Shown here in pieces: positions 36,111-52,111 of a stretch of DNA of 64,000 bases. Below the pieces are notes generated by a model. That model was given only the letters and a program-made list of their open reading frames with translations, ran no database searches and was not told the origin of the DNA. The stretch is from positions 1,411,692 to 1,475,691 of the forward strand of contig CBDCQE010000001.1 of the NCBI GenBank assembly GCA_965220505.1, given 5' to 3'. Each line of letters opens with the position of its first letter. Position 1 is the first letter of the stretch. Source of the stretch: Dehalococcoidia bacterium (lineage in GTDB: Bacteria > Chloroflexota > Dehalococcoidia > Lucifugimonadales > UBA3495). Position numbers and translations under genes: made by a program.

Positions 36111-36284
36111 CGTTGGGCGCGGTAAGCGACGGCGTGTAGGATCTTTGGAGCCGACCCTGGCGCAGTCATGAGGAAAGTCCGTCGGTCGGCTCGGGCAGAG
36201 CCTGGCGCACCAAATCGTCGTGCCGCCACGGGCGGCGGCGCAGTTGGCGCGCCGCCTTTCGCGATCAATGATAACCAGACACGA

Positions 36285-36293
36285 TGCTAGAAT
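36285..36293 (+). promoter_or_regulatory. Extended -10 of protease cassette 1
   Basis: TG-c-TAGAAT just upstream of the partner gene. Confidence 0.5.
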
Positions 36294-36316
36294 GACGGCA
36301 GCAACCGGTAGGGCAT

Positions 36317-36604
36317 ATGCGGCACGGAGCAATCATCGTGGCATTCAACCAGGAAAACGCGCCGGCCATCGGCCGCGCCATTTACCTCGAAAAAATACAT
36401 CCCACCCTGGGGCCGGAGCACAAGGGCAAGGTGGTGGTCATCGACGTCAAAAGCGGCGACTATGAGATTGCCGATCGGCACATCGATGCAGACTCGAAGC
36501 TGCGAAAGCGGCGGCCTGACGCTTTCACCTGGGAGGAGCTGGTGGACGTGCCGAATACGTACCGGGTCCACTCTAGCGTCGTGACCAAGCCGCTACACCT
36601 ATGA
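36317..36604 (+). CDS. Small partner protein of retropepsin cassette 1 (possible start GTG ~36338)
   Basis: Shares Y...L.P...GK..V.D..S.DY..A...L....P with ORFs at 50282 and 51795. Confidence 0.75.
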   Translation: MRHGAIIVAFNQENAPAIGRAIYLEKIHPTLGPEHKGKVVVIDVKSGDYEIADRHIDADSKLRKRRPDAFTWEELVDVPNTYRVHSSVVTKPLHL

Positions 36605-36999
36605 TTACGGGCCAGGTGATGCGGAACCCGGACGGTGGCCTGGAGGCTTGGGTTGCCGTATCCGTCATGGACGCTTACGGCGAACTGCAACAGTTTGAAG
36701 TCATAGTGGACACCAGCTTCACTGGATGGCTGACGCTGCCAGATGTGGACATCCGGCGGCTGGGGTTGACCAGCGCGGGTCATCGATACAGCATTACCGC
36801 CAGCGGCAACGCGGAACGGTTTGAATTCTATCGAACGTCGGTGCTATGGCAAGGACGACCTTACACAATAGAGGTTTTCCAGTCCATCGACCAACCATTA
36901 CTGGGTATGGAACTGTTGCGCGATAACTGGATTACCATGGGAGCCTGGGACGGCGGCGATGTGCTCATTGACGAAGCCCGCCTTGAACGTCTCTTTTGA
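36601..36999 (+). CDS. Retropepsin-like (clan AA) aspartic protease, cassette 1
   Basis: VIVDTSFTGWLTLP (DTS variant of DTG) and PLLGMELL; ATGA overlap with partner. Confidence 0.8.
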   Translation: MITGQVMRNPDGGLEAWVAVSVMDAYGELQQFEVIVDTSFTGWLTLPDVDIRRLGLTSAGHRYSITASGNAERFEFYRTSVLWQGRPYTIEVFQSIDQPLLGMELLRDNWITMGAWDGGDVLIDEARLERLF

Positions 37000-37056
37000 C
37001 ACCGTATTGCCCTCCGTGTAACTTAGCCGGCAATCAATCCTGCAACGAGAGACAAA

Positions 37057-38229
37057 ATGACCACCGTCGCCGTACCTACCGATATTGACCACTACTTGGC
37101 CGCCGCTCCCGACTTCGTGGCCCGCGTCGACGCGGCCTCCGACTGGATCGACGCAGAGCGGCAGATGCCGCCCGACCTGGCCGCGGATATGGCCGACGCC
37201 GGATTCTTCCGGCTGCTATTGCCCCGCGAATTGGGCGGCGCCGAGTTGGCTCATCCCGATTTCTTGAAAATTCTGGAGCTGTTTGCGGGAGCCGATGCCA
37301 GCGTGGCCTGGTGCCTCAACCAGAACAACGTTTTCTCAACGCGGTCCACGCGCATGGCTATGGCAACCGCACGGGAAATCTGGGGCGAACAACGGGGTGT
37401 GGTGACCAACGGACCACCGGCCGCCGGGTCGAAATCGGTTCCGACACCGGGAGGTTTCCGGCTGAGCGGGCATTGGAACTTCAGCAGCGGCAGCGACCAC
37501 GCTACCTGGATTGCCGCGCTGGCCCCCGTCATCCCCGAGAACGGAGGGGGGGTCGATGGGCAGCCTCCACAAACCCGCCTGCATCTGATGCCGATTGACC
37601 AAGTGCGCATGGTGGACCTGTGGCAGGTCGCCGGACTTCGCGGAACCGGCAGTTTCAGTTTCCAGGTGGACGACCTGTTCGTCCCCGAGGAACGCTCTTT
37701 CGTGCAGGAGGGACCGTCCTGGTGCGACCGCCCGCTCTACGGCATTCCCACCACGCTGCTCTTCGCCACCGGCTTTGCCACCGTGGCATTGGGAGTAGCG
37801 CGCAAGAGCCTGGACATCGCCATCGAGGTGGGTGGCAGCAGGACACCCTATCGTTCCGGCGTCCTGCTCCGCGACCACCAGGCCACGCAGCGCACCATCG
37901 GCAAGGCCCACGCGCAGCAGAGTTCGGCCCGTGCTTTCCTGAAGGACGCCCACGGCCGGCTTTGGGAGTCGGCCTGCACCACGGGCACGCTCACCACCGA
38001 CGAGCGTATCCAGCTCCGCGTGGCCGCGACCCACGCCATCCGCACCTCGGCGCAGGTCGTGGACGCCGCGTACACCCTGTGCGGAGCCAGCGGCATTTTC
38101 CAGTCCAACCCGATCCAGCGGAGATTCCAGGACATGCACGTCATCACCCAGCACGTGCAGGGGCACCATGTACACTATGAAACCGCCGGCCAGTACCTGC
38201 TGGGGTTGGATCCGCAGGGCGTTTTCTAG
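37057..38229 (+). CDS. Acyl-CoA dehydrogenase-fold flavin-dependent monooxygenase (HsaA-like)
   Basis: DASVAWC, LSGHWNFSSGSDHATW, GLRGTGS, IQRRFQDMH. Confidence 0.82.
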   Translation: MTTVAVPTDIDHYLAAAPDFVARVDAASDWIDAERQMPPDLAADMADAGFFRLLLPRELGGAELAHPDFLKILELFAGADASVAWCLNQNNVFSTRSTRMAMATAREIWGEQRGVVTNGPPAAGSKSVPTPGGFRLSGHWNFSSGSDHATWIAALAPVIPENGGGVDGQPPQTRLHLMPIDQVRMVDLWQVAGLRGTGSFSFQVDDLFVPEERSFVQEGPSWCDRPLYGIPTTLLFATGFATVALGVARKSLDIAIEVGGSRTPYRSGVLLRDHQATQRTIGKAHAQQSSARAFLKDAHGRLWESACTTGTLTTDERIQLRVAATHAIRTSAQVVDAAYTLCGASGIFQSNPIQRRFQDMHVITQHVQGHHVHYETAGQYLLGLDPQGVF

Positions 38230-38246
38230 CAAAAGGAGGTATCGCC

Positions 38247-39665
38247 ATGGCTGCCAATCACGTCGATACGGTCATAGTTGGCGGGCAGATCGTAACCTCA
38301 TCGCAGGTCTACGAGAGCTCCATCGCGATCTCCGGCGAGAAGATCGTGGCCATCGGCCCGGAGAATTATCTGCCGCCGGCCGACCGGTACATCGACGCCA
38401 GCGGCAAGTTCGTGCTCCCCGGCCTCATCGACAGCCATGTCCATCTGGACGGCCATGACGACTACGCGCTGGGCTCGCTGGCCGCGGCCCATGCCGGCCT
38501 GACCACCCTTGTGCCTTTCGGCACCTACCAACTGGAGGGCGACGAGACGCTGCCCCAAGCCTTCCACCGCACCCGCGAAACCGTCGAACGAGCCGCTCTT
38601 ACCGATTTTGCCTTCCATTTCATCCTGCAGAACCGACCGAGCATCCTGTCCGGTCTGCCCAACGCCGTGGATCTGGGCGTCAAGTCGTTCAAGATGTTCA
38701 TGACCTACAAAAAGCGGCCCGGCCGGATGTGCGACGACGACTACATCTGCGAGGCGATGGACCTAGTGGGACGTAGCGGCGGAGTCCTGCAGCTCCACTG
38801 CGAAAGCGGCAACATCATCGAGTACCTGGAAAACAAGCTCCTGGGCGAGGGCCACACGCACCCCACAGACTTTCCTGCTGCGTGTCCTGACTGGGCAGAA
38901 GAAGAGGCAATCAATCGGGCGGTCAAGATGTCTGCCGCCACCCGCTGCCCGACCTACGTCGTGCATCTCAGCACCCAACTGGGCCTGGAACGCATCAAGC
39001 AAGCCCAAAGCCTCGGGCAGCGGGTGTGGACTGAGACCTGCCCGCAATACCTACTGCTGTCCGACGCCCAGATGGCGGCGCGCGGCCCCCTGGCGAAGAT
39101 CGGCCCGCCACTGCGACCTGAGGATGGACCCGACCGTGACGCTTTGTGGGAAGGTTTGCGCCAGGGTCACGTATCCATTGTGGCCAGCGACCACTCGCCG
39201 CATCCCCAGGAGCTCAAGCAGCCCGGCTGGGACAACATCTTCGTGGACGCCAACGGCATGTCGGTTCCCTTCGGATCGCCCGGAATCGAGACCATCGTCC
39301 CGCTGATGTACAGCGAGGGGGTCGTGCAGCGTGGGCTGCCCATCTGGTGGCTGGCTCGGGTCATGGCGGAAAATCCGGCTCGCATCTTCGGCATCTACCC
39401 GCGCAAAGGAGTGATCCAGGTGGGCTCCGACGCCGACTTCCTGATCCTGGACCCCAACGGCGACCGCATCGTCACCGCCAGTGACCACCACAGCAACGCC
39501 GGCTACACCCTGTTCGAGGGCTGGCGTGTCAACGGCCGCCCCTGGATAACCATGCTCCGGGGGCAGGTGCTGCTTCAGGATGGTGAGATCCAGCAGAACC
39601 CAGGATACGGGACCTTCATTGAGAGCGGCTCACCCGTCGCGCCCCTCGGCGGCCCGGTCGATTAG
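38247..39665 (+). CDS. Cyclic amidohydrolase (dihydropyrimidinase/allantoinase family)
   Basis: PGLIDSHVH, SFKMFM (carbamylated Lys), LHCE, VVHLS, ASDHSP, GSDADF. Confidence 0.85.
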   Translation: MAANHVDTVIVGGQIVTSSQVYESSIAISGEKIVAIGPENYLPPADRYIDASGKFVLPGLIDSHVHLDGHDDYALGSLAAAHAGLTTLVPFGTYQLEGDETLPQAFHRTRETVERAALTDFAFHFILQNRPSILSGLPNAVDLGVKSFKMFMTYKKRPGRMCDDDYICEAMDLVGRSGGVLQLHCESGNIIEYLENKLLGEGHTHPTDFPAACPDWAEEEAINRAVKMSAATRCPTYVVHLSTQLGLERIKQAQSLGQRVWTETCPQYLLLSDAQMAARGPLAKIGPPLRPEDGPDRDALWEGLRQGHVSIVASDHSPHPQELKQPGWDNIFVDANGMSVPFGSPGIETIVPLMYSEGVVQRGLPIWWLARVMAENPARIFGIYPRKGVIQVGSDADFLILDPNGDRIVTASDHHSNAGYTLFEGWRVNGRPWITMLRGQVLLQDGEIQQNPGYGTFIESGSPVAPLGGPVD

Positions 39666-40712
39666 ATGAAAATCACCGAGGTCCGCGCCGTATACCCCAA
39701 CTACCGGTACGTCGTCCCGTCCTGGCGCACCCACTTCTGGCAAATCGTAGTTCGCATCGAAACAGACGTCGGAGCCGTCGGCTTCGGGTACGGCGGCGGT
39801 GGGGTGGCCGGCGTGGAGATAGTCAACCGCCATTTCCGCGAACTGCTGCTGGACCGTGAGATCAACAGCCTGGCGGACATCGGGGACACTTGGGATCATC
39901 TCTACGAACAGTCCCTGCCGTACGGCCGCAAAGGGCTGGCGATGATGGCGCTCAGCGGCGTTGACCTCGCCCTCCACGATCTGCTGGCCAAAGCGGAGAA
40001 CAAGCCGGTGTTCGAGCTCTTGGGCGGCGCCCGGAAACCCAGTATCCTGGCCTATGCCACCGGTCCGGATTCGGAAGCGTACCGCGACCTCGGCTTCCGC
40101 GCCCACAAGTTTCCGCACCGATGGTTGGGAGACGCCGACTACGAGACCGCCGCAAACGCCGCGGCGAGTGCCCGTCAACTCTATGGCCCTGATGCCCGCG
40201 TCATGGTCGATTGCTACATGTCCTGGGATGCAGAGGTCACCGCCCGCATGGCGGACATCCTGCGCGAGTACAACCTCTATTGGTACGAGGACGTGCTGAC
40301 ACCGGACGATCTGGCCGGCCAGGCGGCTTCGCGCGCGGTAGCGGGCCCCACCCTCATCGCCGGCGGTGAGCACGAGTTCACCCACTTCGGATTCGCGGAC
40401 ATCGCCCGCGCCGAGGCCCTGGGCTTGTGGCAACCCGACATCACGTGGTGCGGCGGAATCACGGCCGGCTTGCGCATCATCGACCTGGCCCGGGCCGCCG
40501 GCATACCGGTTTCGCCCCACCGGGGAGCCGAGGTTTGGGGCCTGCATCTCATCGCCGCCTCCGACTGGGCCGACTTCGCCGAATATCACTCCGACCACAT
40601 CCGTTCGTCCCGAGACGTGCTCTGGCTCGATGAACCCGAGCCGGAGGACGGTTTTATCGCCCCATCGGATCATCCGGGCTTCGGAGTCAAACTCAACGAG
40701 GAAATGCTTTAA
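39666..40712 (+). CDS. Enolase-superfamily acid-sugar dehydratase (mandelate racemase / L-rhamnonate dehydratase-like)
   Basis: SGVDLALHDL..K, VMVDCYM, WYEDV, AGGEHEFT, WQPDITWCGG, SPH. Confidence 0.82.
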   Translation: MKITEVRAVYPNYRYVVPSWRTHFWQIVVRIETDVGAVGFGYGGGGVAGVEIVNRHFRELLLDREINSLADIGDTWDHLYEQSLPYGRKGLAMMALSGVDLALHDLLAKAENKPVFELLGGARKPSILAYATGPDSEAYRDLGFRAHKFPHRWLGDADYETAANAAASARQLYGPDARVMVDCYMSWDAEVTARMADILREYNLYWYEDVLTPDDLAGQAASRAVAGPTLIAGGEHEFTHFGFADIARAEALGLWQPDITWCGGITAGLRIIDLARAAGIPVSPHRGAEVWGLHLIAASDWADFAEYHSDHIRSSRDVLWLDEPEPEDGFIAPSDHPGFGVKLNEEML

Positions 40713-40714
40713 CC

Positions 40715-41893
40715 ATGGCCGGACCGCTCAACGCCTTCGTTCCCGATAGCAATGCGTACCTCGCCGGCGCTGACGGCGGACCATTGTCCGGCCTCACCTT
40801 CGCGGCCAAGGACATCTTTGACATCGCCGGTCACGTCACCGGCTGCGGCAATCCCTATTGGCTGGCGACCCACGGCCCCGCCGAGGCGAACGCCTGGGTG
40901 GTGCAACGGTTGGTGGACGCCGGCGCCGTCATGGTCGGCAAAACCATCACCGACGAACTCACCCGCGGGATATTCGGCGAGAATATGCACTACGGAACGC
41001 CCATGAATCCGAGGGCGCCGGGGCGTGTGCCGGGCGGTTCCTCCAGCGGGTCGGCGTCGGCTGTGGCCGGGGAGTTAGTCGACTTTGCCCTCGGCTCGGA
41101 CACCGGAGGCTCGGTGCGCGTGCCATCCAGCTTCTGTGGGTTGTACGGCCTGCGGCCCTCTCACGGACGCATCCCGCTGGACGGCATGCTGCTCCAAGCC
41201 CCGTCCTTCGACACCATCGGCTGGTTCGCCCGGGACGCCGAGACATTCGCTCGGGTCGGGTCGGTCATCCTGCCGCCGGGCAACGAAACGCCGCGACCCC
41301 AGCGCTTGGTCATAGCGGAAGACGCCTGGGATCTCGCCGAGCCGGGCACGAGGCGAGCGCTGGAACCTGTCCTGGAGAAAATTGGCGCGCTTTTCGCCTC
41401 GTCGGCAACAGTACGGTTATCCCCAATCAGCCTGGAAGAATGGTCAGGTCACCAGCAGGTATTGCAGAGCCGTGAGGCGTGGAAGTCGGCACGGGACTGG
41501 ATCGACCGGGTCAATCCGACCTTCAGCTTTGAGGTGTCCGACCGGTATGCCCTGGCCCGCTCGATTACCGATGAGCAGATCGTCACCGCGCAAGCTGGCC
41601 GTGATGCCGTGATTGCCCGCATCAACGAGGTGTTCGACGGCGGGGACGTTGTGATGTGCCTGCCAACCACGGTGTCCCCGGCTCCGCTGCTCGGCCAGCG
41701 CGTTTCCGAGCGACACACGCTGCGGCTGCGCAACAGCGCGCTCACCTCCATAGCGGGGAACACGGGCCGCCCGCAGATCAGTTTGCCGCTAGCCGAAGCA
41801 GACGGCTTGCCCGTCGGCTTGTCCCTACTGGGAGACCGCGGGGCCGACGAGCAGTTGATTGCGTTGGCGCGGGAGATCGCAGCAGCGGCGTAA
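40715..41893 (+). CDS. Amidase-signature family amidase
   Basis: AAKDIFD, PGGSSSGSA, GSDTGGSVRVP. Confidence 0.9.
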   Translation: MAGPLNAFVPDSNAYLAGADGGPLSGLTFAAKDIFDIAGHVTGCGNPYWLATHGPAEANAWVVQRLVDAGAVMVGKTITDELTRGIFGENMHYGTPMNPRAPGRVPGGSSSGSASAVAGELVDFALGSDTGGSVRVPSSFCGLYGLRPSHGRIPLDGMLLQAPSFDTIGWFARDAETFARVGSVILPPGNETPRPQRLVIAEDAWDLAEPGTRRALEPVLEKIGALFASSATVRLSPISLEEWSGHQQVLQSREAWKSARDWIDRVNPTFSFEVSDRYALARSITDEQIVTAQAGRDAVIARINEVFDGGDVVMCLPTTVSPAPLLGQRVSERHTLRLRNSALTSIAGNTGRPQISLPLAEADGLPVGLSLLGDRGADEQLIALAREIAAAA

Positions 41894-41910
41894 CGTCTTA
41901 TCTCTCCGTA

Positions 41911-42396
41911 TCAGTCCCGCCGTGACCTGAACAAAACGTGGATCGCAAAGGCGCGCTGATCGATGGTGTCGGCGCGCCGAAATCCGGCAATGGCCCTATC
42001 GGCCTCGCTGATCAGCTCTAATACTTGAGAGCGCGAAAACGTTGCTTCCGGGACATAATCGGCATGGTGCCGATAACGCTGGATGACTACGAACCACTGC
42101 CCGAAATCTTGAATTTCCGCCGGAAACTGCCGCATTTCTCGCTGATTGTTGCAGCGGTCTTTAGCAACACCATGCTCCAGCGACCGGTAGGCTCGTTCCC
42201 ACGCCGGCTGCCTCCGGCGAGCGGGAGTCGAACCGACCAGCATGTCCGCGCAGCAGCGGGCGAGTGCATGGAATAGCGCGTAATACGCGGTGCTGACGGC
42301 TCGACGCAATTCGGCCTGACGGGGCCGACCGCGCCGTCCACCAACTCCGCCGGCAGCCAGATGTCGGGCAATCCTGATCAGATCTTCAGGATTCAC
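41911..42396 (-). CDS. HEPN-domain protein
   Basis: LRRAVSTAYYALFH and RHHADY motifs; GTG start overlaps the upstream gene by 11 nt. Confidence 0.75.
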   Translation of the reverse strand: MNPEDLIRIARHLAAGGVGGRRGRPRQAELRRAVSTAYYALFHALARCCADMLVGSTPARRRQPAWERAYRSLEHGVAKDRCNNQREMRQFPAEIQDFGQWFVVIQRYRHHADYVPEATFSRSQVLELISEADRAIAGFRRADTIDQRAFAIHVLFRSRRD

Positions 42397-42703
42397 CGTA
42401 CTTGCTCGCGAACAGTTCTTCCCACTCGGATTTTTCCACGAACGATATGCCGGGGACGCTGGGCACCCCTACCGCTATTGATTCCGGCCAGATATGACCG
42501 GGGATTTTGATAGTCCAGCCCGGGTCCAGATTCTTTTGGTCGCCGTCAAACACGATGTAAATATCCAGGTACTCGTCGCCGTCGTGATCAATCTCATGCT
42601 GAACCACTATCGGGTCAAAGACGAACTGGTCCTGGAAATGTTGCACCAACATATCCTTGACCAGGCCGGCGATCTTCTGCTTGTTTTCGGCGCTAATGGA
42701 CAT
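42386..42703 (-). CDS. Small acidic nucleotidyltransferase-like protein (partner of HEPN)
   Basis: DHDGDEYLDIYIVF acidic beta-hairpin; GGAGG RBS; similar to the ORF at 63106. Confidence 0.55.
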   Translation of the reverse strand: MSISAENKQKIAGLVKDMLVQHFQDQFVFDPIVVQHEIDHDGDEYLDIYIVFDGDQKNLDPGWTIKIPGHIWPESIAVGVPSVPGISFVEKSEWEELFASKYGES

Positions 42704-42772
42704 GACGCAACCTCCAATCGCACCTTCCGGTACGCACCACTGATGAATATGGGGTTCCATGCTTGCTGTCCA

Positions 42773-44476
42773 TTACTTGTTGAGAACGACGTCGATCAGG
42801 GCGACCCGCCCCTCGTTGACGGCGTCCAGGCCGTTGCGCAGTGCTTGGGCCAGATCGGCGGGATCCTCCACCCGTTCCCCGTAGCCGCCGAAGGGCTCGA
42901 CCAGCTTGGCGTAGTCCGGGCCGGGGATATGCACACCGTGCCAGATGTCCGAGCGCGCCGCAACGCCGTCGGGGTAGTAGGCCAGATGGTTGCCGCGCAT
43001 AGCCTCGTAGCCGCCGTTGTTGAACAGCACGGTCAGGAACGGCAGGTTGGCCTCGCCGGCAACTCCGAAACACTGCGTAACCGGGTTGTACAGGAAGCCG
43101 CCGTCGCCCATAAGCGCCACCACCGGCTGATCGGGCTTCGCCAGCTTGACCCCCAGCGCCAGCCCCAGACCTTGACCCAGGCCGCCGTTGGTCTTGTAGT
43201 AACTCTGGGGTCGGTCCCAGACGACGTGGCGGCCGATGGCGCCCCGATGGGTGGTGACTTCCTCGGAGTAAACCACATCCTCGGGCATCACCTCACTGAG
43301 CACAGCGCACAGCCAGGCCGGGTCGATAGGCCGACTGCTACTCGCGGCGGCTTCGGCGGCGTAGGTTGCTTCTGCCAAACGCTCGTGCTCCTCAGCCCAG
43401 CGCTGGCGTCGCACCTCTATCTCGTCGCGGCGACCGGCCACCGCGGGTTGCAAGGCCTCGACCAGCAAACCCAGCCCGATGGTGAGATCACCCTCGACAT
43501 AGCGGTCGGCGAAGAGGTTCTGGTACACCATGTATTCCTTGACGGTGGTCTCGCCCATGGATACCACCGTCGCATTTTGGGGCCCAGCCTGCGGCGGATA
43601 CCAAGGAGCACGGCTGCCGGCCAGGATCACCAGGTCACTCTGCTGGAGATAACGTTCCGGCTGGCCGCCCAGGTACAGCGGATGGCCCTTGGGGAAGTTG
43701 GCGTACAGCGCCGCGCTCTCCACCACCGGAATGGCGAACAGTTCGGCCAGGGTCACCAGGTTGTTGAAACCGTGGATCTCGCGCCCCGCGCTGTCCGTAA
43801 TGATCAACGGCGATCTGCTGCGGGCGATCAGACCAGCCAACTCGGCAATGTCCTGATCCGATGGGCGGATTTTGGGCGCGGACGGAACGGTTCGCAGCTT
43901 TTCCGGCGGCGTCCACGAATGCACCATAGTCTCGATGGGAATGTTCATGAACGATGGCCCCTGGGGCACGCGCTGGGCCAGTTCGCCGGCCCGAACCAGT
44001 TGCTCGTACACGGTGTGTGGGCTCGTGGCTCGGCCGCTCCACTTGGTGAAGGCGTCGGCAAAGCGGTCCGGGCCACCCACCACGCTGAGGTTGCGGTACC
44101 ACTGGCCTTGAGGGTCGATCTCCGGGTCCTCGCCGTAGCTTGTGGCCTCGCCGGAGCACACCAGCATGGGCACCTCGCCGATCATCGCGCCGTGTACTCC
44201 CATGCTGCCCTGGAGCAAACCGACGCCGGCGTGCAGCAGGACCGCCTGCATCCGGCCTGTGACCCGGGTGTAGCCGCTTGCCATGTTCACTGCCAGGGTC
44301 TCGTGCCAGCAGTTGATGTACTGAGGCCCCGGCGTCTCGTTGACCTTCTGACGGGCCAGAGCTTCCCACACCGGCGCCCATTCCGAACCGGGGGACGAGA
44401 TTATGTAATCAATGCCAAGATTGCGGAATGCTTCGAGGATGCCTTCGCCGCAATCCTGAGTGGTCGTGCTGGTCAT
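42773..44476 (-). CDS. Thiamine pyrophosphate-binding enzyme (benzoylformate decarboxylase / ALS-like)
   Basis: PGSEWAP, WHETLAVNMASGY, LMGDGGFLYN...NNGGY TPP motif. Confidence 0.88.
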   Translation of the reverse strand: MTSTTTQDCGEGILEAFRNLGIDYIISSPGSEWAPVWEALARQKVNETPGPQYINCWHETLAVNMASGYTRVTGRMQAVLLHAGVGLLQGSMGVHGAMIGEVPMLVCSGEATSYGEDPEIDPQGQWYRNLSVVGGPDRFADAFTKWSGRATSPHTVYEQLVRAGELAQRVPQGPSFMNIPIETMVHSWTPPEKLRTVPSAPKIRPSDQDIAELAGLIARSRSPLIITDSAGREIHGFNNLVTLAELFAIPVVESAALYANFPKGHPLYLGGQPERYLQQSDLVILAGSRAPWYPPQAGPQNATVVSMGETTVKEYMVYQNLFADRYVEGDLTIGLGLLVEALQPAVAGRRDEIEVRRQRWAEEHERLAEATYAAEAAASSSRPIDPAWLCAVLSEVMPEDVVYSEEVTTHRGAIGRHVVWDRPQSYYKTNGGLGQGLGLALGVKLAKPDQPVVALMGDGGFLYNPVTQCFGVAGEANLPFLTVLFNNGGYEAMRGNHLAYYPDGVAARSDIWHGVHIPGPDYAKLVEPFGGYGERVEDPADLAQALRNGLDAVNEGRVALIDVVLNK

Positions 44477-44479
44477 ACT

Positions 44480-45997
44480 TCAGTCCTCCTGTGCCGGGCT
44501 CGCCGCCGGGCGGAGTGCGGGTTCGGGCCGAGTGCTGGCCGGTACAGCCTGATCCTCACGGTGGGTGGGCAGCGCCGACAAAAAGAGCGCCACCGACAAT
44601 GCTCCAATCATAGTGAAGAAAGCGTATCTCATTCCCACGGTGAACGCGGTTCCCACTCCCGATGCTGCGCCGTGGCGCACCGCGTCCAGGCTGGGCTCAT
44701 AGCCCATGGAACCCATGGTGGCGGTTACGATGGCGGTGGCAACGGCGACGCTGACCACGTTGCCGGCGTTGCGGATCAGGTTGACCAGTGCCGAAACTAC
44801 GCCGTGGCTTTCCCGTTCCACCGCGCTCAAAATGGAGCTCGAATTAGGGGAGTAGAAGGTGCCCATGCCGCTGCTGGTCAGCATCAGGCCGGGGATCACC
44901 TGGAATAGCGAAGATTCGGCAGTCGCCTGGGAGAGAATGGTGATGCCTGTGGTCGACAGGATCAGTCCGGTTACGGTGAATTTGCGCCAGCCATAACGGT
45001 CCGAAAGCCGGCCGCTGATGGGACCCAGCATCGCCATGCAAAGCGCTCCCGGAACCACGCAAAGACCCGCCACCGACGGGCTGTAGCCAAGAACGTTTTG
45101 CAGGTAGAACGGCGTCATGAACAGGATCGCCGAGCTGCCGATGAACATGAGGTAGTTGGCAGTGACACCCAGGAAAAAGTTGCGCCGGCGGAACAATCGC
45201 AGGTTCAGCATTGGGTTGGCGATTCGTAGCTCCCACCAGATGAACCCCGCCAGGAGCACAACGAAAGCCGCGGCTGCGCCCAGTATTGGCGGGGAAGTCC
45301 AGCCGGTGCGGTGGGCGTTGGTGATGCCAAGCAGCAACGCCAGCAGGGCGCTGGAGGACAAAAATGCTCCCAGCCAGTCAAAGGCCCCCTGTCCCGGGCC
45401 GCGAACCGGGCGCGATTGGTCCGTGCTGGTCAGCACCGCAACGCACATGCCGATGCTGATGGCCACCATGGGGACCGTGGCAAAGAAAACGGAGCGCCAT
45501 CCGAAGGCGTCGACCAGGAAGCCGCCCATGGCCGGGCCGGCGACGGCTCCGGTGCCGACCATCGTCATAATCAGGCCGATGGCCTTCCCGCGCTCGTTGG
45601 GCGGGAAGGCGCCTATCATGATGGCCATGCCGGTGCCCTGGGTCATGGCCGCGCCGGTGCCCTGCACGATGCGGGAGATGATCAGTATCCCCAGGTCGGA
45701 GGACGTTCCGGCCGCGACGGAGCCAGCGATTGTTACCACCGAGCCGATGATGTACACGCGCTTGGAGGTGATGATATCCGCCAGCCGGCCCATGGGCAGC
45801 AGCAGGGCGATGATCGTCATGGCATAGCCGATTACCAGCCACTGGACGCTGGGGATATCGGTTTGGAAATGGGTCGCTATGGTCGGCAGGGCAACTCCTA
45901 CGCTGCCGTGGTCGACCACGGAGGCGAAGATGCCTACCGCCAGGGTCGCGAAGGCGTACCACTTGTAGTGGCGGCCTCGCGCGAGCGAAGATATCAC
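44480..45997 (-). CDS. MFS transporter, DHA2-like (14 TM)
   Basis: VALPTIA, LLPMGRLADI, GRLSDRYGWR motif A. Confidence 0.88.
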   Translation of the reverse strand: MISSLARGRHYKWYAFATLAVGIFASVVDHGSVGVALPTIATHFQTDIPSVQWLVIGYAMTIIALLLPMGRLADIITSKRVYIIGSVVTIAGSVAAGTSSDLGILIISRIVQGTGAAMTQGTGMAIMIGAFPPNERGKAIGLIMTMVGTGAVAGPAMGGFLVDAFGWRSVFFATVPMVAISIGMCVAVLTSTDQSRPVRGPGQGAFDWLGAFLSSSALLALLLGITNAHRTGWTSPPILGAAAAFVVLLAGFIWWELRIANPMLNLRLFRRRNFFLGVTANYLMFIGSSAILFMTPFYLQNVLGYSPSVAGLCVVPGALCMAMLGPISGRLSDRYGWRKFTVTGLILSTTGITILSQATAESSLFQVIPGLMLTSSGMGTFYSPNSSSILSAVERESHGVVSALVNLIRNAGNVVSVAVATAIVTATMGSMGYEPSLDAVRHGAASGVGTAFTVGMRYAFFTMIGALSVALFLSALPTHREDQAVPASTRPEPALRPAASPAQED

Positions 45998-46029
45998 GAC
46001 TGCGTTACCGGGACCGTAGATGCCAAGCG

Positions 46030-46989
46030 CTACTCGCCGGCGAAGAACCGTCGAGGGTTCTCCACTGTGATCTGGTGAATGTCCTCGTCCGACGCTCCCA
46101 TTTCCTTCAGGCGGGGCAGCACGTAACGGGGGATGAAGTTGTAGCCATCCGGGTTGGCCCGTCGCCGTTGCTCCTGCACCTCTGCGCCGTGGCGAGCCTT
46201 GGGCACCGAGTAGTCGTGGGAAAGGAAAATACGGTGGGTGAACCCGGCATCCATCAGCGCCTTGGCGACTTCGGTCCGCTGTTCCCAGTCGGGAGTGCCG
46301 GGGCGGAATCCGCCAGGGTAGCGGTCCAGGCCCAGCCAGACGCCTTTGTTGAGGAGACCCAGGAGGTACTCCAGGTCGGTGTCGTCGTTGCTGTGGCCGA
46401 TGTACACCCGGTCCAAGTCAACGCCTTCTTCCTCCAGAACACGCACTTGCGCCTCGCCGATACGCTCCGGCGACCACGTGTGTGTCGAGATGGGCACGCC
46501 GGTGGCTTTCTGCGCACGCGCGGCGGCCCGCAACACGTTCTCCTGTGGGGCCGTGATCCCACCTTCGTCGCTGGCCACCTTGATGATGCCAGCCTTGATC
46601 CCGGTGCCCTCGATGCCCTCCTCGATTTCGCGAACATAAAGCTCGGCGATGACGTCGGGGGAGATTTCGCCGAAGGGCCGTGGCACGGCCAGGTGGTTGC
46701 CGGTCGCGACGACCACCTGCATGTCGCTACCCAACGCCACCTCGCGGATCAGCTGGACGTCCCGTCCCAGGTCGAAGGTGCTCACGTCGATTATGGTTTT
46801 GACTCCATCCTCCCTGACGGCGCGCATGGCGGCGATGGACTGTTCGCGGATGCCGTCACGGTCGATGATCTCCGGGTAGGTGTGGCGGAGGCCGGCGGCG
46901 TTGGTTCCAACATGCTCGTGGCTCAGGGTGAACCCCAGGTCGTCGGTATCTATGGGCCCCATCACGCTGTTCACGGTTGCCATTGCCAT
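46030..46989 (-). CDS. Phosphotriesterase-family protein
   Basis: FTLSHEH, AGIIKVA, PISTH, YIGHS, FLSHD metal ligands. Confidence 0.88.
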   Translation of the reverse strand: MAMATVNSVMGPIDTDDLGFTLSHEHVGTNAAGLRHTYPEIIDRDGIREQSIAAMRAVREDGVKTIIDVSTFDLGRDVQLIREVALGSDMQVVVATGNHLAVPRPFGEISPDVIAELYVREIEEGIEGTGIKAGIIKVASDEGGITAPQENVLRAAARAQKATGVPISTHTWSPERIGEAQVRVLEEEGVDLDRVYIGHSNDDTDLEYLLGLLNKGVWLGLDRYPGGFRPGTPDWEQRTEVAKALMDAGFTHRIFLSHDYSVPKARHGAEVQEQRRRANPDGYNFIPRYVLPRLKEMGASDEDIHQITVENPRRFFAGE

Positions 46990-47179
46990 CCCTCCTGGCC
47001 GTGGGCGAATGCGGGTATTCTATTACGGATTCCGCTGGGACGATACGAGCGCGGCGTCTCCGGTGCGCCGGCTTGCGCTACCATCACCGTGTCCGTGGCT
47101 CGCCCGTGCGTTTCCCAGTGCGACTTGCTGAGCAATTGCTGGCACGTCTATATTGACCGAAAAGCACTGGGAGGCAAAC

Positions 47180-47731
47180 ATGCGAACGCCCATTTTGACC
47201 CGTGACCAGGTCCCCGCGGAACTGCAAGACGCATTCGACCATGAGACCGCCAACTCCGGCGGCGTGGTTTCCAGCGGCCCAGGTTCCGCCATGATCAACA
47301 GCCCCGAAATGCGGAAGCGGGCGAACCATCTGGTCAACTACCTGCGGGACGAGTCGTCCCTGCCCAAGAAGATCCAGGAACTGGCCATGATCCTGACGGC
47401 ACGCAACATGGACTGCCAGTACATCTGGTTCGCTCACTCCGTGCGAGCCAAGGAACAAGGCATCAGCGCAGAGTTCGTTGACAACCTGCGTGATCGTAAA
47501 GCTTTGCCGCAACTGCCGGCAGACGAGCAGACGGTGGTCAACTACGCCACGGAATTGTTCAACAACCACCGTGTCACCGACGCAACCTTTCAGGCCGCCA
47601 TCGACCAGTTCGGGCCCCTGGGATTGACCGAACTGACGACGCTGTTCGGTTACTACACCCTGCTTGCCTTCAACGCCAACTCTTTCGACATCGACGTGCC
47701 GGACGGCGCGGAGCCCAAGCTCCCGATTTAG
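47180..47731 (+). CDS. Carboxymuconolactone decarboxylase / AhpD-like protein
   Basis: QELAMILTAR..DCQYIWFAH, ELTTLFGYY; ATG 47180 behind GGAGG. Confidence 0.78.
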   Translation: MRTPILTRDQVPAELQDAFDHETANSGGVVSSGPGSAMINSPEMRKRANHLVNYLRDESSLPKKIQELAMILTARNMDCQYIWFAHSVRAKEQGISAEFVDNLRDRKALPQLPADEQTVVNYATELFNNHRVTDATFQAAIDQFGPLGLTELTTLFGYYTLLAFNANSFDIDVPDGAEPKLPI

Positions 47732-47791
47732 CCGGGCTCCAACCGTCGCCGCCGTTCGGCGTATCTGCCCGGGTATGCTCCCGCGCTGCGC

Positions 47792-48877
47792 TCAACGCGG
47801 CAGCCGGCTGAGCAGGCTGACGTACCATCGGGACAATGGGACGACCAAACCGGCCCGATGGTACAGGCGGGCCGGCGCGGATTCAGCCGCAATGCTTTGC
47901 GCCAGCATCGGCTCCAGGACCCGGTCGCGGAACTGCTCGACCAACGCGGGGTTGTCCGTGCACAGCACAACCTCCTGTTGCAGATCGTACGCCACGAAAT
48001 CGAAGTTGCAGCTGCCCAGAATGAGTTGCGTCCCGTCAATCAGTACGGCTTTCACGTGGCACATTTCCGGTTGGTAAAGCAGCACCTCGAGATTGCAACC
48101 CGCGGCCGCGCGAAACAACTCCTGTTGCAGGATGGCCTTGTTGTTGCGGGCGGGGTTGATGACCCGAACCCGAACTGCTGCCGGAAGTTGCGCGAGGCGA
48201 CCCAGAAAAGGGTCCGACACGTAGGGCGTGATCACGTCGACAGATTTTTCGGCCCGTTCCACGGTGGCGAAGAGGTCTTCGTATTGATCTCGGCTGCGGC
48301 GACCATCGAGGAAGAAAAGCCTTCCGATAGAGGTCGACACCACCCCGGAAGAGTTGACGCCGCGCAGCGTGTTGCAAAAATCCCGGGCTAGCGCATCCAC
48401 CAGCGTGGGGCAGTCGGAGCGCATCATCAGGTCGTGCCACCGGAAATTGTGCTCGCTGAGGTTGATCCCTCCCAGGAATGCCTGGTCGTCGACCACCATC
48501 ATCTTCTTGTGGTTCCTGATGGGAAACTTGCGCCAGAGGCAGCCCATGGGGTTCGTAACGACGATACGCACGCCGTCCCGCTCATCCTGGCGGAGCAGCC
48601 GGCGCGTATCGCCCACTTCGCGTCGGAACTCCGGATCCAAAAGGAATCTTGGGCTGAAAACCAAGTCGTCGCTGATCTTGGCGGTGGAAAAGGCGTCGAC
48701 GCACAGGACCTTCTCCTCGGCAGGAGAATGGGCCAGCAGATCCCAAAAATGCCGGCCTACCGAATCCATTTCGAAGGTCATCACCTGCACCAGCACGCGG
48801 CGGCGCGCCTGCAGTATGGCTGGCTCTACCGCGGCGACAAACTCAGGGGCATTGACCAGTAGCGAGGGATCGTGCAC
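47792..48877 (-). CDS. Phospholipase D superfamily (cardiolipin synthase-like, no N-terminal TM)
   Basis: Two HKD motifs: RNHKKMMVVDD..GGINL and HVKAVLID..GSCNF. Confidence 0.85.
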   Translation of the reverse strand: MHDPSLLVNAPEFVAAVEPAILQARRRVLVQVMTFEMDSVGRHFWDLLAHSPAEEKVLCVDAFSTAKISDDLVFSPRFLLDPEFRREVGDTRRLLRQDERDGVRIVVTNPMGCLWRKFPIRNHKKMMVVDDQAFLGGINLSEHNFRWHDLMMRSDCPTLVDALARDFCNTLRGVNSSGVVSTSIGRLFFLDGRRSRDQYEDLFATVERAEKSVDVITPYVSDPFLGRLAQLPAAVRVRVINPARNNKAILQQELFRAAAGCNLEVLLYQPEMCHVKAVLIDGTQLILGSCNFDFVAYDLQQEVVLCTDNPALVEQFRDRVLEPMLAQSIAAESAPARLYHRAGLVVPLSRWYVSLLSRLPR

Positions 48878-48890
48878 TGGCTGGGAGAAA

Positions 48891-49895
48891 TTAGCGGGAT
48901 GGAAAACGGGCGGCGAGGACGTCCGCGACCAGTCGCGCGGCCACCTGTGCGGTCAGGTCAGACAGGTCGTAGGGCGGCGCAACCTCCACCACGTCGAACG
49001 CCACCAGGTTGGACCGCGCTACCAGCGCGGTCAGGCAACGTCGGCATTCCTCATAATACAGCCCGCCCACCTCCGGGGTTCCGGTGCCGGGCGCCTGGGT
49101 CGGGTCAAGCACGTCCACGTCGAAGGTGATGTACAGATTTGACCCGACGGGCAGGCTCTCGGCCACGGCCTCCGGGCCTGCTTCGCGGAACTGGCGGGTG
49201 GTAACTATCGTGTTCCCGTGGGCCACGGCCTCCTCATACGGAGCCCGACGCACGCTGCGGATGCCCACCGACGATATGGAACCCACGTGCTCCAACTCGT
49301 GGCACCGGCGGATTGGGCTGCCGTGGGTCAGCAAAGATCCATGGTAATCGTGGGTGTAGTCCAGGTGCGCGTCGAAGTGCACGATGTCCAATGGAGCAAA
49401 TCGGCCAAGTCCGGCCACCGCTGGGAAGGTGATGGCGTGATCGCCTCCAAGGATCACGGGCAACGCCCCACGCTCGGCGATCTGCGCCACCACACCGGCC
49501 AGCCGCTCGAAATTATGCACCACCTCGGAGGGATTCACCGTCACATTGCCGCAATCCACCATGGTGATGCCGCGTAGGAGTTCATCACCCGCGTCGGCGT
49601 CGAAGAATCCCTCCGCGTCTTTTCCCTGACCGTAGGGATCAAGGTAAGAATAAGCCCGTGGCGCGTCCCGAAGGGCGTCGGGGCCGTAGCGGGCCCCCGG
49701 GCGTCCGAAGGTTCCCTGGTCGAAGGGCATGCCCACGAAAGCGATATCCGCATCCAGCTGATCGATGTCGGTACAACGGGGCGACCGGAACATGGTTCGC
49801 GGCCTGCGGTCCAGCGGAGGGACATCGCCGGGCGACGCATCGGGCAGGTATTGTGGTCCGATGTTGAAGTTAGAATTGAAGTAGGTCATACACAC
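48891..49895 (-). CDS. Agmatinase / ureohydrolase family
   Basis: PGARYGPDA, GGDHAIT, HFDAHLD, TFDVDVLDP, APGTGTPEVGG, VEVAPPYD. Confidence 0.9.
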   Translation of the reverse strand: MCMTYFNSNFNIGPQYLPDASPGDVPPLDRRPRTMFRSPRCTDIDQLDADIAFVGMPFDQGTFGRPGARYGPDALRDAPRAYSYLDPYGQGKDAEGFFDADAGDELLRGITMVDCGNVTVNPSEVVHNFERLAGVVAQIAERGALPVILGGDHAITFPAVAGLGRFAPLDIVHFDAHLDYTHDYHGSLLTHGSPIRRCHELEHVGSISSVGIRSVRRAPYEEAVAHGNTIVTTRQFREAGPEAVAESLPVGSNLYITFDVDVLDPTQAPGTGTPEVGGLYYEECRRCLTALVARSNLVAFDVVEVAPPYDLSDLTAQVAARLVADVLAARFPSR

Positions 49896-49916
49896 CGAAT
49901 AAGCGGGAAGTAGCGA

Positions 49917-50285
49917 TCAAGGAAGTTTAGCAATGGTTACGCGCCCTCCGGGAACCATTGCCGCGGTAAGCAAATAGCCCGCTAGTAGGCGTGCGCCAAC
50001 AAGGGTTTCAGATTCGGATATCAGAACTGGGATCGCTCTAACCTCATCGTCCCAGAATACGGCGGCGTAACAAAAATCGTGTCGCTGTTGGTTGCCCAAT
50101 ACCAGTGGCCTTGACCCTTCTATGGGCAGGCCCATCTGGCTAATGGCTCCCCGGGGCATCATCAGATATTGGGAAAACCCGGTGTCAATCACTGCGTCGA
50201 ATCGATGTGCTGTCCGCCGATCATAGGCAACCACTTCTACAGAGATGACAGCCTCGTAGATATCGTTCACGCGCCCGCTGATCAT
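49917..50285 (-). CDS. Retropepsin-like (clan AA) aspartic protease, cassette 2
   Basis: AVIDTGFSQYLMMP, TLVGARLL; ATGA overlap with partner. Confidence 0.82.
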   Translation of the reverse strand: MISGRVNDIYEAVISVEVVAYDRRTAHRFDAVIDTGFSQYLMMPRGAISQMGLPIEGSRPLVLGNQQRHDFCYAAVFWDDEVRAIPVLISESETLVGARLLAGYLLTAAMVPGGRVTIAKLP

Positions 50286-50548
50286 CCAATTCTTATCCGC
50301 TTGCCATGCAAGATGGTCTCATCGTCAAACCCGACGCGAAAGACGATCATCTCCCCATCGGGCTGCCGGTCACGCAAGTGGACAGTAGCAACAATCAGCT
50401 CATCGTCCACTTCGTAGTCATGCGACTTGGCGTCGATGACGATGAACTTGCCATTCTCCGCCGGCTCTAACTGGTCGCGAAGTTCCGCGTTGTAGAACTC
50501 TTCGGCCTGCAACGAAGCGGCAGTGCGGTTGTTGTCAGTCGCCGCCAT
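50282..50548 (-). CDS. Small partner protein of retropepsin cassette 2
   Basis: FYNAELRDQLEPAENGKFIVIDAKSHDYEV; GGAGG RBS before ATG 50548. Confidence 0.78.
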   Translation of the reverse strand: MAATDNNRTAASLQAEEFYNAELRDQLEPAENGKFIVIDAKSHDYEVDDELIVATVHLRDRQPDGEMIVFRVGFDDETILHGKRIRIG

Positions 50549-50604
50549 GATTCCTCCACGATATGCAGCCAAAACCGTTCCGGCGATTGCTGCTGCGCTT
50601 TTTG

Positions 50605-50610
50605 ATTATA
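50605..50610 (-). promoter_or_regulatory. -10 element of cassette 2
   Basis: Perfect TATAAT on the minus strand ~57 nt upstream of the partner start. Confidence 0.55.
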
Positions 50611-50645
50611 CTTGACCGCAGCCGAAGTGAAAAAAGGAGATTGCC

Positions 50646-51416
50646 ATGGCACGGCTCGAGGACTACCAGAACCGGTTCCAGTTTGCGAAATTCGAGCGCG
50701 AGGACGGCATACTGCAGATGACGCTCCACAGCGACGGAGACACGCTGCAATGGGGCGCCGGCCCGCACACCGAGTTGCCGGAGGTATTTCACACCATCGG
50801 GACCGATCCGGAGAACAAGGTGATCATCATGACCGGCGCCGGAGACGGGTTCACCGGACCGGCCGGCAGCAGCGACACGGTGCCGCGGCGCACACCGGAG
50901 CAGTGGGACGCCACCTACTGGGAAGGCAAGCATCTGCTGGGCAATTTGCTCAACATCGAGGTGCCGATCATCGCCGCCATCAACGGCCCGGCGTTGCGGC
51001 ATTCGGAACTGCCCCTGCTCAGCGACATCGTACTGGCTGCGCCGCACACCACGTTCCAGGACTCCGGCCACTTCATGAGCGGGCTGACGCCGGGTGACGG
51101 GATGCACATCATCTACCCGCTGCTGCTTGGCATCAACCGCGGACGCTATTTCCTGCTGACCGGTCAGATGCTTGACGCGGCCAAAGCGCAGGAATTCGGC
51201 CTGGTCGCGGAGGTGTTGCCCACGGACGAACTGCTGCCCCGCGCCTGGGAGCTGGCACGGCAACTGGCGCAGCAACCGCGCCTGGTGCTGCGATATTCGC
51301 GTGTGCTGCTGACGCATCAGTTGAAAGGCGTCCTGCACGACATACTGGGCTATGGCCTGGCGTTGGAAGGCCTCGGGTCCGCTCAGGACTACCTGGACCG
51401 GGGGCAGGGCCGCTGA
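50646..51416 (+). CDS. Enoyl-CoA hydratase/isomerase family protein
   Basis: VIIMTGAGDGFT, VPIIAAINGPA, PGDG, AKAQEFGLV.EV; AAGGAG RBS. Confidence 0.88.
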   Translation: MARLEDYQNRFQFAKFEREDGILQMTLHSDGDTLQWGAGPHTELPEVFHTIGTDPENKVIIMTGAGDGFTGPAGSSDTVPRRTPEQWDATYWEGKHLLGNLLNIEVPIIAAINGPALRHSELPLLSDIVLAAPHTTFQDSGHFMSGLTPGDGMHIIYPLLLGINRGRYFLLTGQMLDAAKAQEFGLVAEVLPTDELLPRAWELARQLAQQPRLVLRYSRVLLTHQLKGVLHDILGYGLALEGLGSAQDYLDRGQGR

Positions 51417-51426
51417 GCGGCGCTTT

Positions 51427-51798
51427 TCAAAGGGCCGCCAACTCGGTGATGGCGACGATTCCGCCGGGGGTCATATCGATCAGCACGCGGCTCCCGGCGA
51501 GCAAGTCGGCGCTGGCTAGGTACGAATAATCGGACTCCAGCACCCTGACCGTCTTGAAACCGCGGTGCCACATCACTTCCCCGTCGTAATAGGTGAACCG
51601 CGCTTCCTGCTCGTTAGCCAATCTGAATGTCAACCTCCCCGCCGGAACCAATCCGATCTGCCTGATGACAGTTTGGGGTAGGAGCAAGTCTGCTCCCTGA
51701 AACCCGGTATCGATTATGACTTCCAGCGTGAGATCGTAGTCGCGCATTTAAACCGGAATTACTGCCTCACAGTACTCGTTAACTCGGCCGGTGATCAC
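51427..51798 (-). pseudogene. Retropepsin-like protease, cassette 3, with in-frame TAA at codon 17
   Basis: GTG 51798 reads MITGRVNEYCEAVIPV*MRDYDLTLEVIIDTGF; TAA at 51750-51748, immediately followed by ATG. Confidence 0.78.
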
Positions 51799-52076
51799 GC
51801 TTCTATTTCCCTGATTCTTCCGCCTCCCAATGAGCCAACCGTCCGATATCCGATTCGGAACGCATAACCGTAAGAACCCGGATGCTGCTCTTTGAGTTTT
51901 GAGTCGGCCTCGGTTAAGTTAACGCCGATGGCGTAGTCGCGTGATACCAAGTCCAGAACAAGCACTTTACCCTTTTGGGTGGGCAGCAGTTTAGGCAGTA
52001 ATTCCGTTTCGTAGAACGCTTCGGCAGCGGCCCATCCATCTGTCTTCACGGGTCCGGCGTGCTCGGCTTTGGTCAT
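51795..52076 (-). CDS. Small partner protein of retropepsin cassette 3
   Basis: FYETELLPKLLPTQKGKVLVLDLVSRDYAI; GGAGG RBS; GTGA overlap with the protease. Confidence 0.78.
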   Translation of the reverse strand: MTKAEHAGPVKTDGWAAAEAFYETELLPKLLPTQKGKVLVLDLVSRDYAIGVNLTEADSKLKEQHPGSYGYAFRIGYRTVGSLGGGRIREIEA

Positions 52077-52105
52077 GTTCTGTCCTCCCCTGAGGTTGTG
52101 GTTCC

Positions 52106-52111
52106 ATTGTA
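52106..52111 (-). promoter_or_regulatory. -10 element of cassette 3
   Basis: TACAAT on the minus strand 30 nt upstream of the partner start. Confidence 0.45.

Follow-up and report, generated by a model that had tools for sequence, protein, structure and literature searches.

The VapBC pairs of Mycobacterium tuberculosis are an expanded paralogous set of type II toxin-antitoxin (TA) modules. In classical modules of this type autoregulation through a DNA-binding antitoxin is a defining feature, the toxin-binding regions of the antitoxins are conserved, disordered and fast-evolving C-terminal segments that co-vary with the neighbouring gene, and an acidic antitoxin commonly, if not universally, accompanies a basic toxin. 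Retropepsins, for their part, are active as homodimers; APRc of Rickettsia conorii is the soluble domain of a membrane-embedded protein and is involved in surface-protein processing. Here we describe a two-gene cassette that resembles both, found three times within one stretch of 64,000 nt (the window) of a SAR202-type Dehalococcoidia metagenome-assembled genome (MAG; marine Chloroflexota, 3.88 Mb in 3 contigs), in which the gene for a small protein (the partner, of a family without a Pfam model) overlaps a downstream gene for a retropepsin-like protease. Prokaryotic single-domain retropepsins (COG5550/TIGR03698) were first noticed more than 15 years ago and are without an assigned role (PMC2642776); as Llorens et al. 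wrote in 2009 of the prokaryotic single-domain clan AA peptidases, 'Little is known about pSNCAPs' (PMC2642776).

We give a probability of roughly one half to the reading that the cassettes are a type II-like TA or conflict module, with the protease as effector and the partner as a neutraliser acting through its C-terminal tail. With type II modules of the VapBC kind the cassettes share small, co-oriented, coupled genes with the neutraliser-like gene first, and many diverged paralogous pairs, together with a patchy distribution, low GC content, gain and loss at fixed sites, and an effector gene that decays first. They differ in that the putative effector is a retropepsin-type aspartic protease rather than a nuclease, kinase, acetyltransferase or gyrase poison, and in that the partner has no ribbon-helix-helix (RHH), helix-turn-helix (HTH), Phd or AbrB fold and matches no solved structure. 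With the TIGR03698/COG5550 peptidases (AF_0612 type) the proteases have in common a size near 120 residues, the D-T-G-F motif within one retropepsin domain and the absence of a signal peptide; the upstream partner goes unmentioned there (PMC2642776). APRc is likewise a bacterial retropepsin, whereas the cassette proteases are small, cytoplasmic by prediction, and partnered. In the literature on TIGR03698, COG5550 and DUF5678 we found no description of such a two-gene module. What the window contributes is a partner family without a Pfam model, the most extensive expansion that we saw, with 16 pairs in one genome and up to 29 in congeners, and evidence of gain and loss, allele replacement and one-sided decay.

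Architecture and pairing of the cassettes

ORF calls and reading of the sequence place the three two-gene units, numbered 1 to 3 by position, at 36317-36999 (+), 49917-50548 (-) and 51427-52076 (-), exactly where the initial annotation, made from the sequence alone, had put them. The cassette 1 partner (36317-36604, +; 95 aa) runs into its protease (36601-36999, +; 132 aa, motif DTSF) through an ATGA in which partner stop and protease start overlap. The same ATGA joins the cassette 2 partner (50282-50548, -; 88 aa counted from the ATG at 50548, which has a GGAGG 6 nt upstream, the longest open reading frame (ORF) beginning at a TTG at 50572) to its protease (49917-50285, -; 122 aa, motif DTGF), and a GTGA occupies the junction in cassette 3; the (A/G)TGA overlap that had been claimed is present in every cassette, as is the claimed partner of about 90 aa with a common motif. 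The partner of cassette 3 is intact (51795-52076, -; 93 aa, with the tail motif RIGYRTVGSLGG) and adjoins a protease frame (51427-51798, -) that is a nonsense pseudogene, because an in-frame TAA follows its sixteenth codon: the frame opens at a GTG (51798), runs for 16 codons encoding MITGRVNEYCEAVIPV, meets the TAA at 51750-51748 and resumes at an in-frame ATG (51747) ahead of the DTGF core. Of the earlier description of the protease (about 125 aa, an MI(T/S)G.V start and D-T-(G/S)-F) the motifs therefore stand, and the full-length frame is broken in cassette 3. The copies are as divergent as had been stated, with pairwise identities of 27-30% among the three partners and 29-35% among the three proteases; they are old paralogs and not a recent spread of the kind seen with insertion sequences.

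Using conserved motifs as seeds, we collected 80 genome loci through the partner and 74 evaluable metagenome loci through the protease. A protease lay directly downstream in 74 of the 80 partner-seeded loci, and a partner lay upstream in 74 of the 74 protease-seeded loci, which came from varied metagenome assemblies and whose proteases were 33-43% identical to the window copy, except for one at 66%. Pairing is thus conserved across genomes, one of the points on which the initial annotation had made its proposal depend. The small partner gene precedes the protease gene, and among the 94 pairs with a callable start, 37 have a protease start that overlaps the partner stop by 4 nt and 34 have one that does so by 8 nt. 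The distances between partners correlate tightly with those between their proteases (Mantel r = 0.89 for 85 pairs, and 0.72 for 15 pairs of the window's own genome, with 0 of 2000 permutations as high). Judged from these loci, the pairing is near-obligate and translationally coupled, and the cassettes have what is expected of a TA module in this respect: an adjacent, co-oriented, co-translated pair of small genes conserved as a unit.

The six partner-seeded exceptions are of several kinds. Three of them (L063, L085 and L101) hold N-terminal protease remnants next to intact partners; in one (L096; CBDBDN010000005.1, 2444-3569) a PaREP1 domain, fused to the partner, stands where the protease would be, and a second PaREP1 gene comes next (Pfam E 3e-15); in another (L079; OZ240214.1, 2486-3423) the partner is extended by 80 aa at its C-terminus, and the next ORF has a weak RelE-like C-terminal motif; and in the last (L071) nothing recognisable lies downstream. 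A RelE/ParE identity for the ORF downstream of the L079 partner was considered and is unconfirmed, the match to Rv2866 reaching just E 0.24 and Pfam and NCBIfam giving none. Separately, a 313-aa predicted protein (P0276, at locus L237; ena:ERZ25039567 contig_142796, 935-1876) comprises, in a single frame, two partner domains together with a DTGF protease, and is either a natural fusion or an assembly indel artefact. In the window's own genome an isocitrate-lyase/PEP-mutase-like ORF (C3:926144-927349, +) also ends, in frame, with a partner domain and is directly followed by a protease (C3:927361-927723); this fusion may be no more than apparent.

The protease

The cassette proteases match the NCBIfam model TIGR03698 (clan_AA_DTGF) at 36.2 bits (E 5.8e-9) in cassette 1, at 29.9 bits (E 5.4e-7) in cassette 2 and, for the part downstream of the stop codon, at 25.9 bits (E 9.5e-6) in cassette 3. 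The family assignment that had been suggested is thus supported by significant scores (E 6e-9 to 1e-5), all of which (26-36 bits) lie under the curated cut-off of 57.35 bits; because the scores are significant yet under this cut-off, the profile comparison argues that the proteases are diverged relatives, or a subfamily, of TIGR03698. The Pfam search returned just a marginal gag-asp_proteas match. The catalytic motif is DTGF in cassettes 2 and 3 and DTSF in cassette 1; among 163 related proteases DTGF is found in 147 and the catalytic Asp is kept in every one, DTSF being unique to cassette 1. The AlphaFold2 (AF2) model of the cassette 1 protease (predicted local distance difference test score, pLDDT, 93.7) has the retropepsin fold, and its best Foldseek match in the PDB is APRc (5c9b; E 7.5e-4, probability 1.0, TM-score ~0.5), the other matches including HIV-1, XMRV, EIAV and foamy-virus proteases and pepsin lobes (probability ~1.0). 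By analogy with other retropepsins the cassette proteases would be expected to homodimerise and to be catalytically active. The protease profile matches 3,288 proteins in a 90%-identity collection, named 'clan AA aspartic protease' where their source names them.

The partner and its tail

The initial annotation had likened the partner to DUF5678, and this did not survive: none of 26 partners matches any Pfam model at E <= 10, hhalign of the partner profile against DUF5678-type proteins gives a probability of 0.6%, and the assignment to PF18929 was rejected, that model matching other genes of the genome and none of these partners. Nor was there any match to the partner in NCBIfam, PADLOC or PHROGs. 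The family is nonetheless large, with 3,390 cluster representatives (50% identity) at E <= 1e-3 and 1,483 at E <= 1e-10, and some of its proteins carry N-terminal extensions of about 140-165 residues. In the AF2 model of the cassette 1 partner (pLDDT 80.9) the core is alpha-beta-beta-alpha-beta, a long helix being followed by a beta-hairpin with the invariant GK..ID..SGDYE, a second helix, a third strand and a low-confidence tail (residues 76-95, low pLDDT, predicted to be disordered); searched against the PDB and BFVD, the model found nothing similar in fold (best E 0.7 and 0.1).

In 158 of 225 unique partners the last core strand leads straight into a tail motif, R-[VI]-G-[YHF]-[PR]-[AGT]-[VAL]-[HY]-R-[FMLI]-G, which is present in the partner of cassette 3 and lacking in those of cassettes 1 and 2. 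The tail diverges faster than the core (mean distance 0.71 vs 0.49), and its divergence correlates with that of the protease when the core is controlled for (partial r = 0.39). Like the toxin-binding regions of type II antitoxins, the partner tail is C-terminal, disordered and conserved, and it co-varies with the neighbouring gene, here that of the protease.

The tail also bears on an alternative that we consider unlikely, namely that the partner is a substrate or pro-protein processed by the protease in the manner of retroviral Gag-Pro, for example by cutting at a Tyr/Phe-Pro of the tail, so that the cassette would be a maturation system. This dipeptide is favoured by retroviral proteases, and Y-P or F-P occurs within the tail of 77 of the 225 unique partners; as in gag-pro, the partner lies upstream and the retropepsin follows immediately in the -1 frame; and the P0276 protein, if natural, is a fusion of the two, while family proteins with 2-3 tandem partner domains in a single polypeptide are common (P0241-P0260). 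Yet many partners have H-R or other residues in place of the dipeptide, and cassettes 1 and 2 lack the motif; partners stay intact where the protease is dead or gone, which would be unexpected if processing were needed; and the 16 insulated paralogs and the presence/absence dynamics would be left unexplained. Unlike Gag-Pro, the cassettes have no reverse transcriptase, long terminal repeat or Gag homology and encode separate proteins with their own start codons, and a partner-protease fusion by programmed -1 frameshifting was rejected, no slippery heptamer being visible at the three window junctions.

Tandem or fused two-partner ORFs precede one protease at four loci (L029, L062, L126 and L129), and the window's own genome has a fused double partner (C3:46301-46969, -) ahead of a protease (C3:45945-46304, -). 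Such doubled partner domains may be a counterpart to the two-fold symmetry of retropepsin dimers.

Copy number in genome, genus and phylum

A genome-wide census, one of the checks proposed with the initial annotation, found 16 partner-protease pairs in the window's own genome, together with one orphan partner, the fused double partner just described and two distant DTGA proteases that stand alone. Sixteen pairs, with significant TIGR03698 matches for all three window proteases, are far more than chance would produce. In 41 congeneric species the counts range from 0 to 28 partners and from 0 to 29 proteases, two congeners having none, and in an even sample of the phylum the partner occurs in 20 of 251 genomes (8%), at 1-4 copies each; the related assemblies are mainly MAGs of uncultured Dehalococcoidia, Chloroflexi/Chloroflexota or SAR202. 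As in TA modules, the distribution is accessory, multi-copy and horizontally mobile. A HicA-like ORF (249716-249997, -) follows the orphan partner (C3:250433-250729, -) at a distance of a few hundred bases.

Evolution at the three sites

Cassette 1 is found between the same two genes, an alpha/beta hydrolase gene and an acyl-CoA dehydrogenase-like gene, in no fewer than 14 related species. Among the nearest relatives these flanking genes are 94-100% identical in amino acid sequence, with a synonymous divergence (dS) of 0.2-0.4 and a ratio of nonsynonymous to synonymous divergence (dN/dS) of 0.01-0.08; the partner is 67-84% identical (dS 0.7-0.8, dN/dS 0.13-0.34) and the protease 59-61% (dS 0.9-1.2, dN/dS 0.25-0.33, within an overall range of 0.17-0.41). 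The dS of the cassette (0.7-1.2) is three to five times that of its flanks, and the ratios indicate that both cassette genes are under purifying selection. Along the comparison with syntenic relatives, identity is 90-98% in the flank up to about 36110, drops at about 36115 to 25-50% over the upstream region and the partner N-terminus, recovers to 80-95% in the partner core, falls again to 45-70% from the partner tail through two-thirds of the protease (36540-36900), and is about 90% from 36900 onward. This mosaic points to replacement by a divergent allele, or to gene conversion, rather than to uniform fast evolution, and it links the partner tail with the protease body, which appear to have been replaced jointly at a syntenic site.

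Cassettes 2 and 3 lie in the order arginase-family gene, cassette 2, enoyl-CoA hydratase-like gene (ECH), cassette 3, major facilitator superfamily (MFS) transporter gene; the neighbours of all three cassettes are thus metabolic or transport genes, in agreement with the unrelated metabolic flanks noted initially. Among 16 genomes of the same genus both cassettes are present in 3 and cassette 3 alone in 1, clean empty sites are found on both sides in 7, and at least one flank was unrecovered in 5. Presence does not track ECH identity, and we therefore conclude that there has been repeated gain or loss. No flanking repeats or target-site duplications were obvious by eye when filled and empty sites were compared.

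Purifying selection on both genes and the retention of the cassette 1 site over so many species are what one would expect if the protease did ordinary housekeeping or regulated proteolysis and the partner served it as adaptor or chaperone. We nonetheless hold that explanation to be highly improbable, given a range of 0-29 copies within one genus with two members lacking the cassettes altogether, a partner present in just 8% of sampled phylum genomes, clean empty sites in close relatives, low GC and pseudogenes.

One-sided decay

Broken or lost proteases are found beside intact partners, and an intact protease without an intact partner was never seen; in the window's own genome an in-frame TAA interrupts 2 of the 16 proteases, at different positions, and all 16 partners are intact. 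This pattern speaks to the polarity of the pair. Were the small protein the harmful one and the protease an enzymatic antidote degrading it, in a type VII-like arrangement, the protease would be an enzyme always co-translated with the small protein, as it is, and the partner tail could serve as a degron or cleavage site; but proteases that break first beside intact partners, and orphan partners, would be lethal, and in most systems the antidote gene comes first. We regard this reversed polarity as very unlikely.

A TA-like reading of the cassettes

Because of the gene order, the one-sided decay and the occurrence of the partner domain with TA-type genes (PaREP1, HicA-like), we take the protease to be the effector and the partner to be the neutraliser of the proposed TA-like module. 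The modularity of the partner is also antitoxin-like, as seen in its tandem or fused doubles, its fusion to PaREP1, the orphan by the HicA-like gene and the P0276 fusion. Toxicity, the direction of neutralisation and the role of the tail are what we infer from these genomic patterns. The downstream gene would encode a soluble, cytoplasmic, single-domain aspartic protease of the retropepsin type, a homodimer by analogy, and the upstream, coupled gene a small protein whose alpha/beta core is novel and whose conserved tail (R-[VI]-G-[YHF]-[PR]-x-x-[HY]-R-[FMLI]-G) is predicted to be disordered by itself. The partner would bind its cognate protease stoichiometrically and hold it inactive, its tail most likely occupying the substrate cleft or the dimer interface, and the protease, once its partner was lost or degraded, would be free to cut targets of the cell or possibly of a phage. 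The approximately 16 deeply diverged pairs of the genome would be insulated cognate pairs, and cassette 3 a decaying copy with its effector knocked out and its neutraliser kept. Much of the TA proposal of the initial annotation is consistent with this genomic behaviour (pairing, coupling, variable copy number, gain and loss, allele replacement and one-sided decay), and its DUF5678-like partner and own promoters found no support.

Several observations weigh against the TA-like reading. The partner shows no structural match to any DNA-binding fold (RHH, HTH, Phd, AbrB), and no conserved operator was found, the region upstream of cassette 1 not being conserved even between close relatives; since the partner has no recognisable DNA-binding fold and there is no conserved operator, autoregulation of the cassettes is unsupported. 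The charges run opposite to the common TA pattern, the proteases being the acidic members (median pI 4.4) and the partners close to neutral. The cassette 1 protease may be attenuated or catalytically impaired by its DTSF in place of DTGF. Binding of the partner tail in the protease cleft is conjecture, and the one-sided decay concerns small numbers, at loci seeded by conserved motifs. In the literature we found no aspartic-protease toxin and no paper linking retropepsin-like or aspartyl proteases to TA pairs. None of the six cassette proteins matches PADLOC-DB v2.0.0 at E <= 0.1 or any PHROGs family, and searches of viral contigs with the protease patterns found no relatives. A link to the PADLOC candidate PDC-M08 (Payne et al.) could not be reproduced for this family, the main text of that preprint naming neither this candidate nor retropepsins.

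These last results also count against a defence role, which the initial annotation had also entertained: there is no match to known anti-phage systems in PADLOC, no phage-borne relative turned up among the viral contigs, and the window cassettes stand singly amid metabolic genes, outside defence islands. An anti-phage abortive-infection or defence module, in which the partner would act as a sensor or guard and set the protease free upon infection, overlaps mechanistically with the TA-like reading and would differ in being selected for immunity. It would account for the strong variation in copy number between species, for allele replacement with elevated dS and for the fusions of partner-family proteins to other domains (the N-terminal extensions of about 140-165 residues, and PaREP1), and small retropepsin proteins have been listed close to type III CRISPR loci of Sulfolobales in a survey of 2014 (PMC3973734). 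On balance we consider it improbable.

If retropepsins do act as TA-like effectors, the aspartic protease would be a new biochemical class of toxin and the fold of HIV protease a bacterial suicide or immunity effector, which would have implications for where the retroviral protease came from and would assign a role to thousands of 'hypothetical' pairs (some 3,400 partner clusters at 50% identity, and protease matches in excess of 3,000 at 90%). We suggest, tentatively and with some doubt, a new TA or conflict class in which a retropepsin poison is checked by the pseudo-substrate-like tail of a partner of new fold, with 16-29 insulated pairs per genome in SAR202-type Dehalococcoidia, among which tail and protease body are swapped as specificity alleles. 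Comparable to that of VapBC in M. tuberculosis, the expansion in this uncultivated lineage offers a natural set of insulated pairs for the study of specificity, and the partner family, which lacks both a Pfam model and a structural relative, is a target for structure determination.

Composition, promoters and neighbouring elements

The AT-richness that had been judged by eye is real: cassette GC is 0.546-0.577 against 0.63 for the genome, in the 3rd to 8th percentile of random 650-bp genome windows. The -10 boxes assigned to the individual cassettes fared less well: TAGAAT, TATAAT and TACAAT are indeed there, but shuffled sequence yields promoter-like sites at least as often; promoter and terminator scans of the cassettes were at chance level. 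The cassette 1 upstream region (36115-36316, +), which includes the TAGAAT (36288-36293) and is hypervariable between close relatives, yielded no + strand promoter call. The TATAAT of cassette 2 falls within the element TTGATTATACTTGACC (window 50596-50611), which every congener examined keeps about 30-100 nt upstream of ECH, whether it has cassette 2 or not, and which is also found at cassette-free empty sites (L127-L131 and L137); the element is probably a promoter or operator of ECH.

Five congeneric genomes contain an ECH paralog (56-58% identical) with one in-frame TAG inside the match (G017:C1:373033-373791, G013:C1:3512830-3513582, G009:C1:3310050-3310802, G005:C1:741101-741853 and G010:C3:1617459-1618211), which could reflect conserved read-through or recoding, or a shared pseudogene.

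The window's own genome also has two cassettes of a different kind (C2:385208-385971, - and C1:566489-567309, -), in which a DUF5678-type small protein (QYPDKWV) overlaps a retropepsin-like DTGA protease of about 150 aa with a weak TIGR02281 match. They follow a common logic with the cassettes described above, a small upstream protein overlapping a retropepsin-like protease, and differ in partner family (the hhalign probability of 0.6% given above) and in protease subfamily; retropepsins in this genome therefore pair with at least two unrelated small partners. A third DTGA protease (C3:277978-278592, +) adjoins a weak DUF5678-like match.

Between cassettes 1 and 2, a low-GC patch of the window (GC about 0.52) holds a further overlapping gene pair at 41911-42760 (-), a 124-aa ORF (42386-42760) followed by a 161-aa ORF (41911-42396). 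No match to the pair was found in Pfam, NCBIfam, PADLOC or PDB sequences, and the sole match of the 161-aa protein is phrog_5176 (function unknown, E 6e-6); the pair looks like another TA-like or accessory pair.

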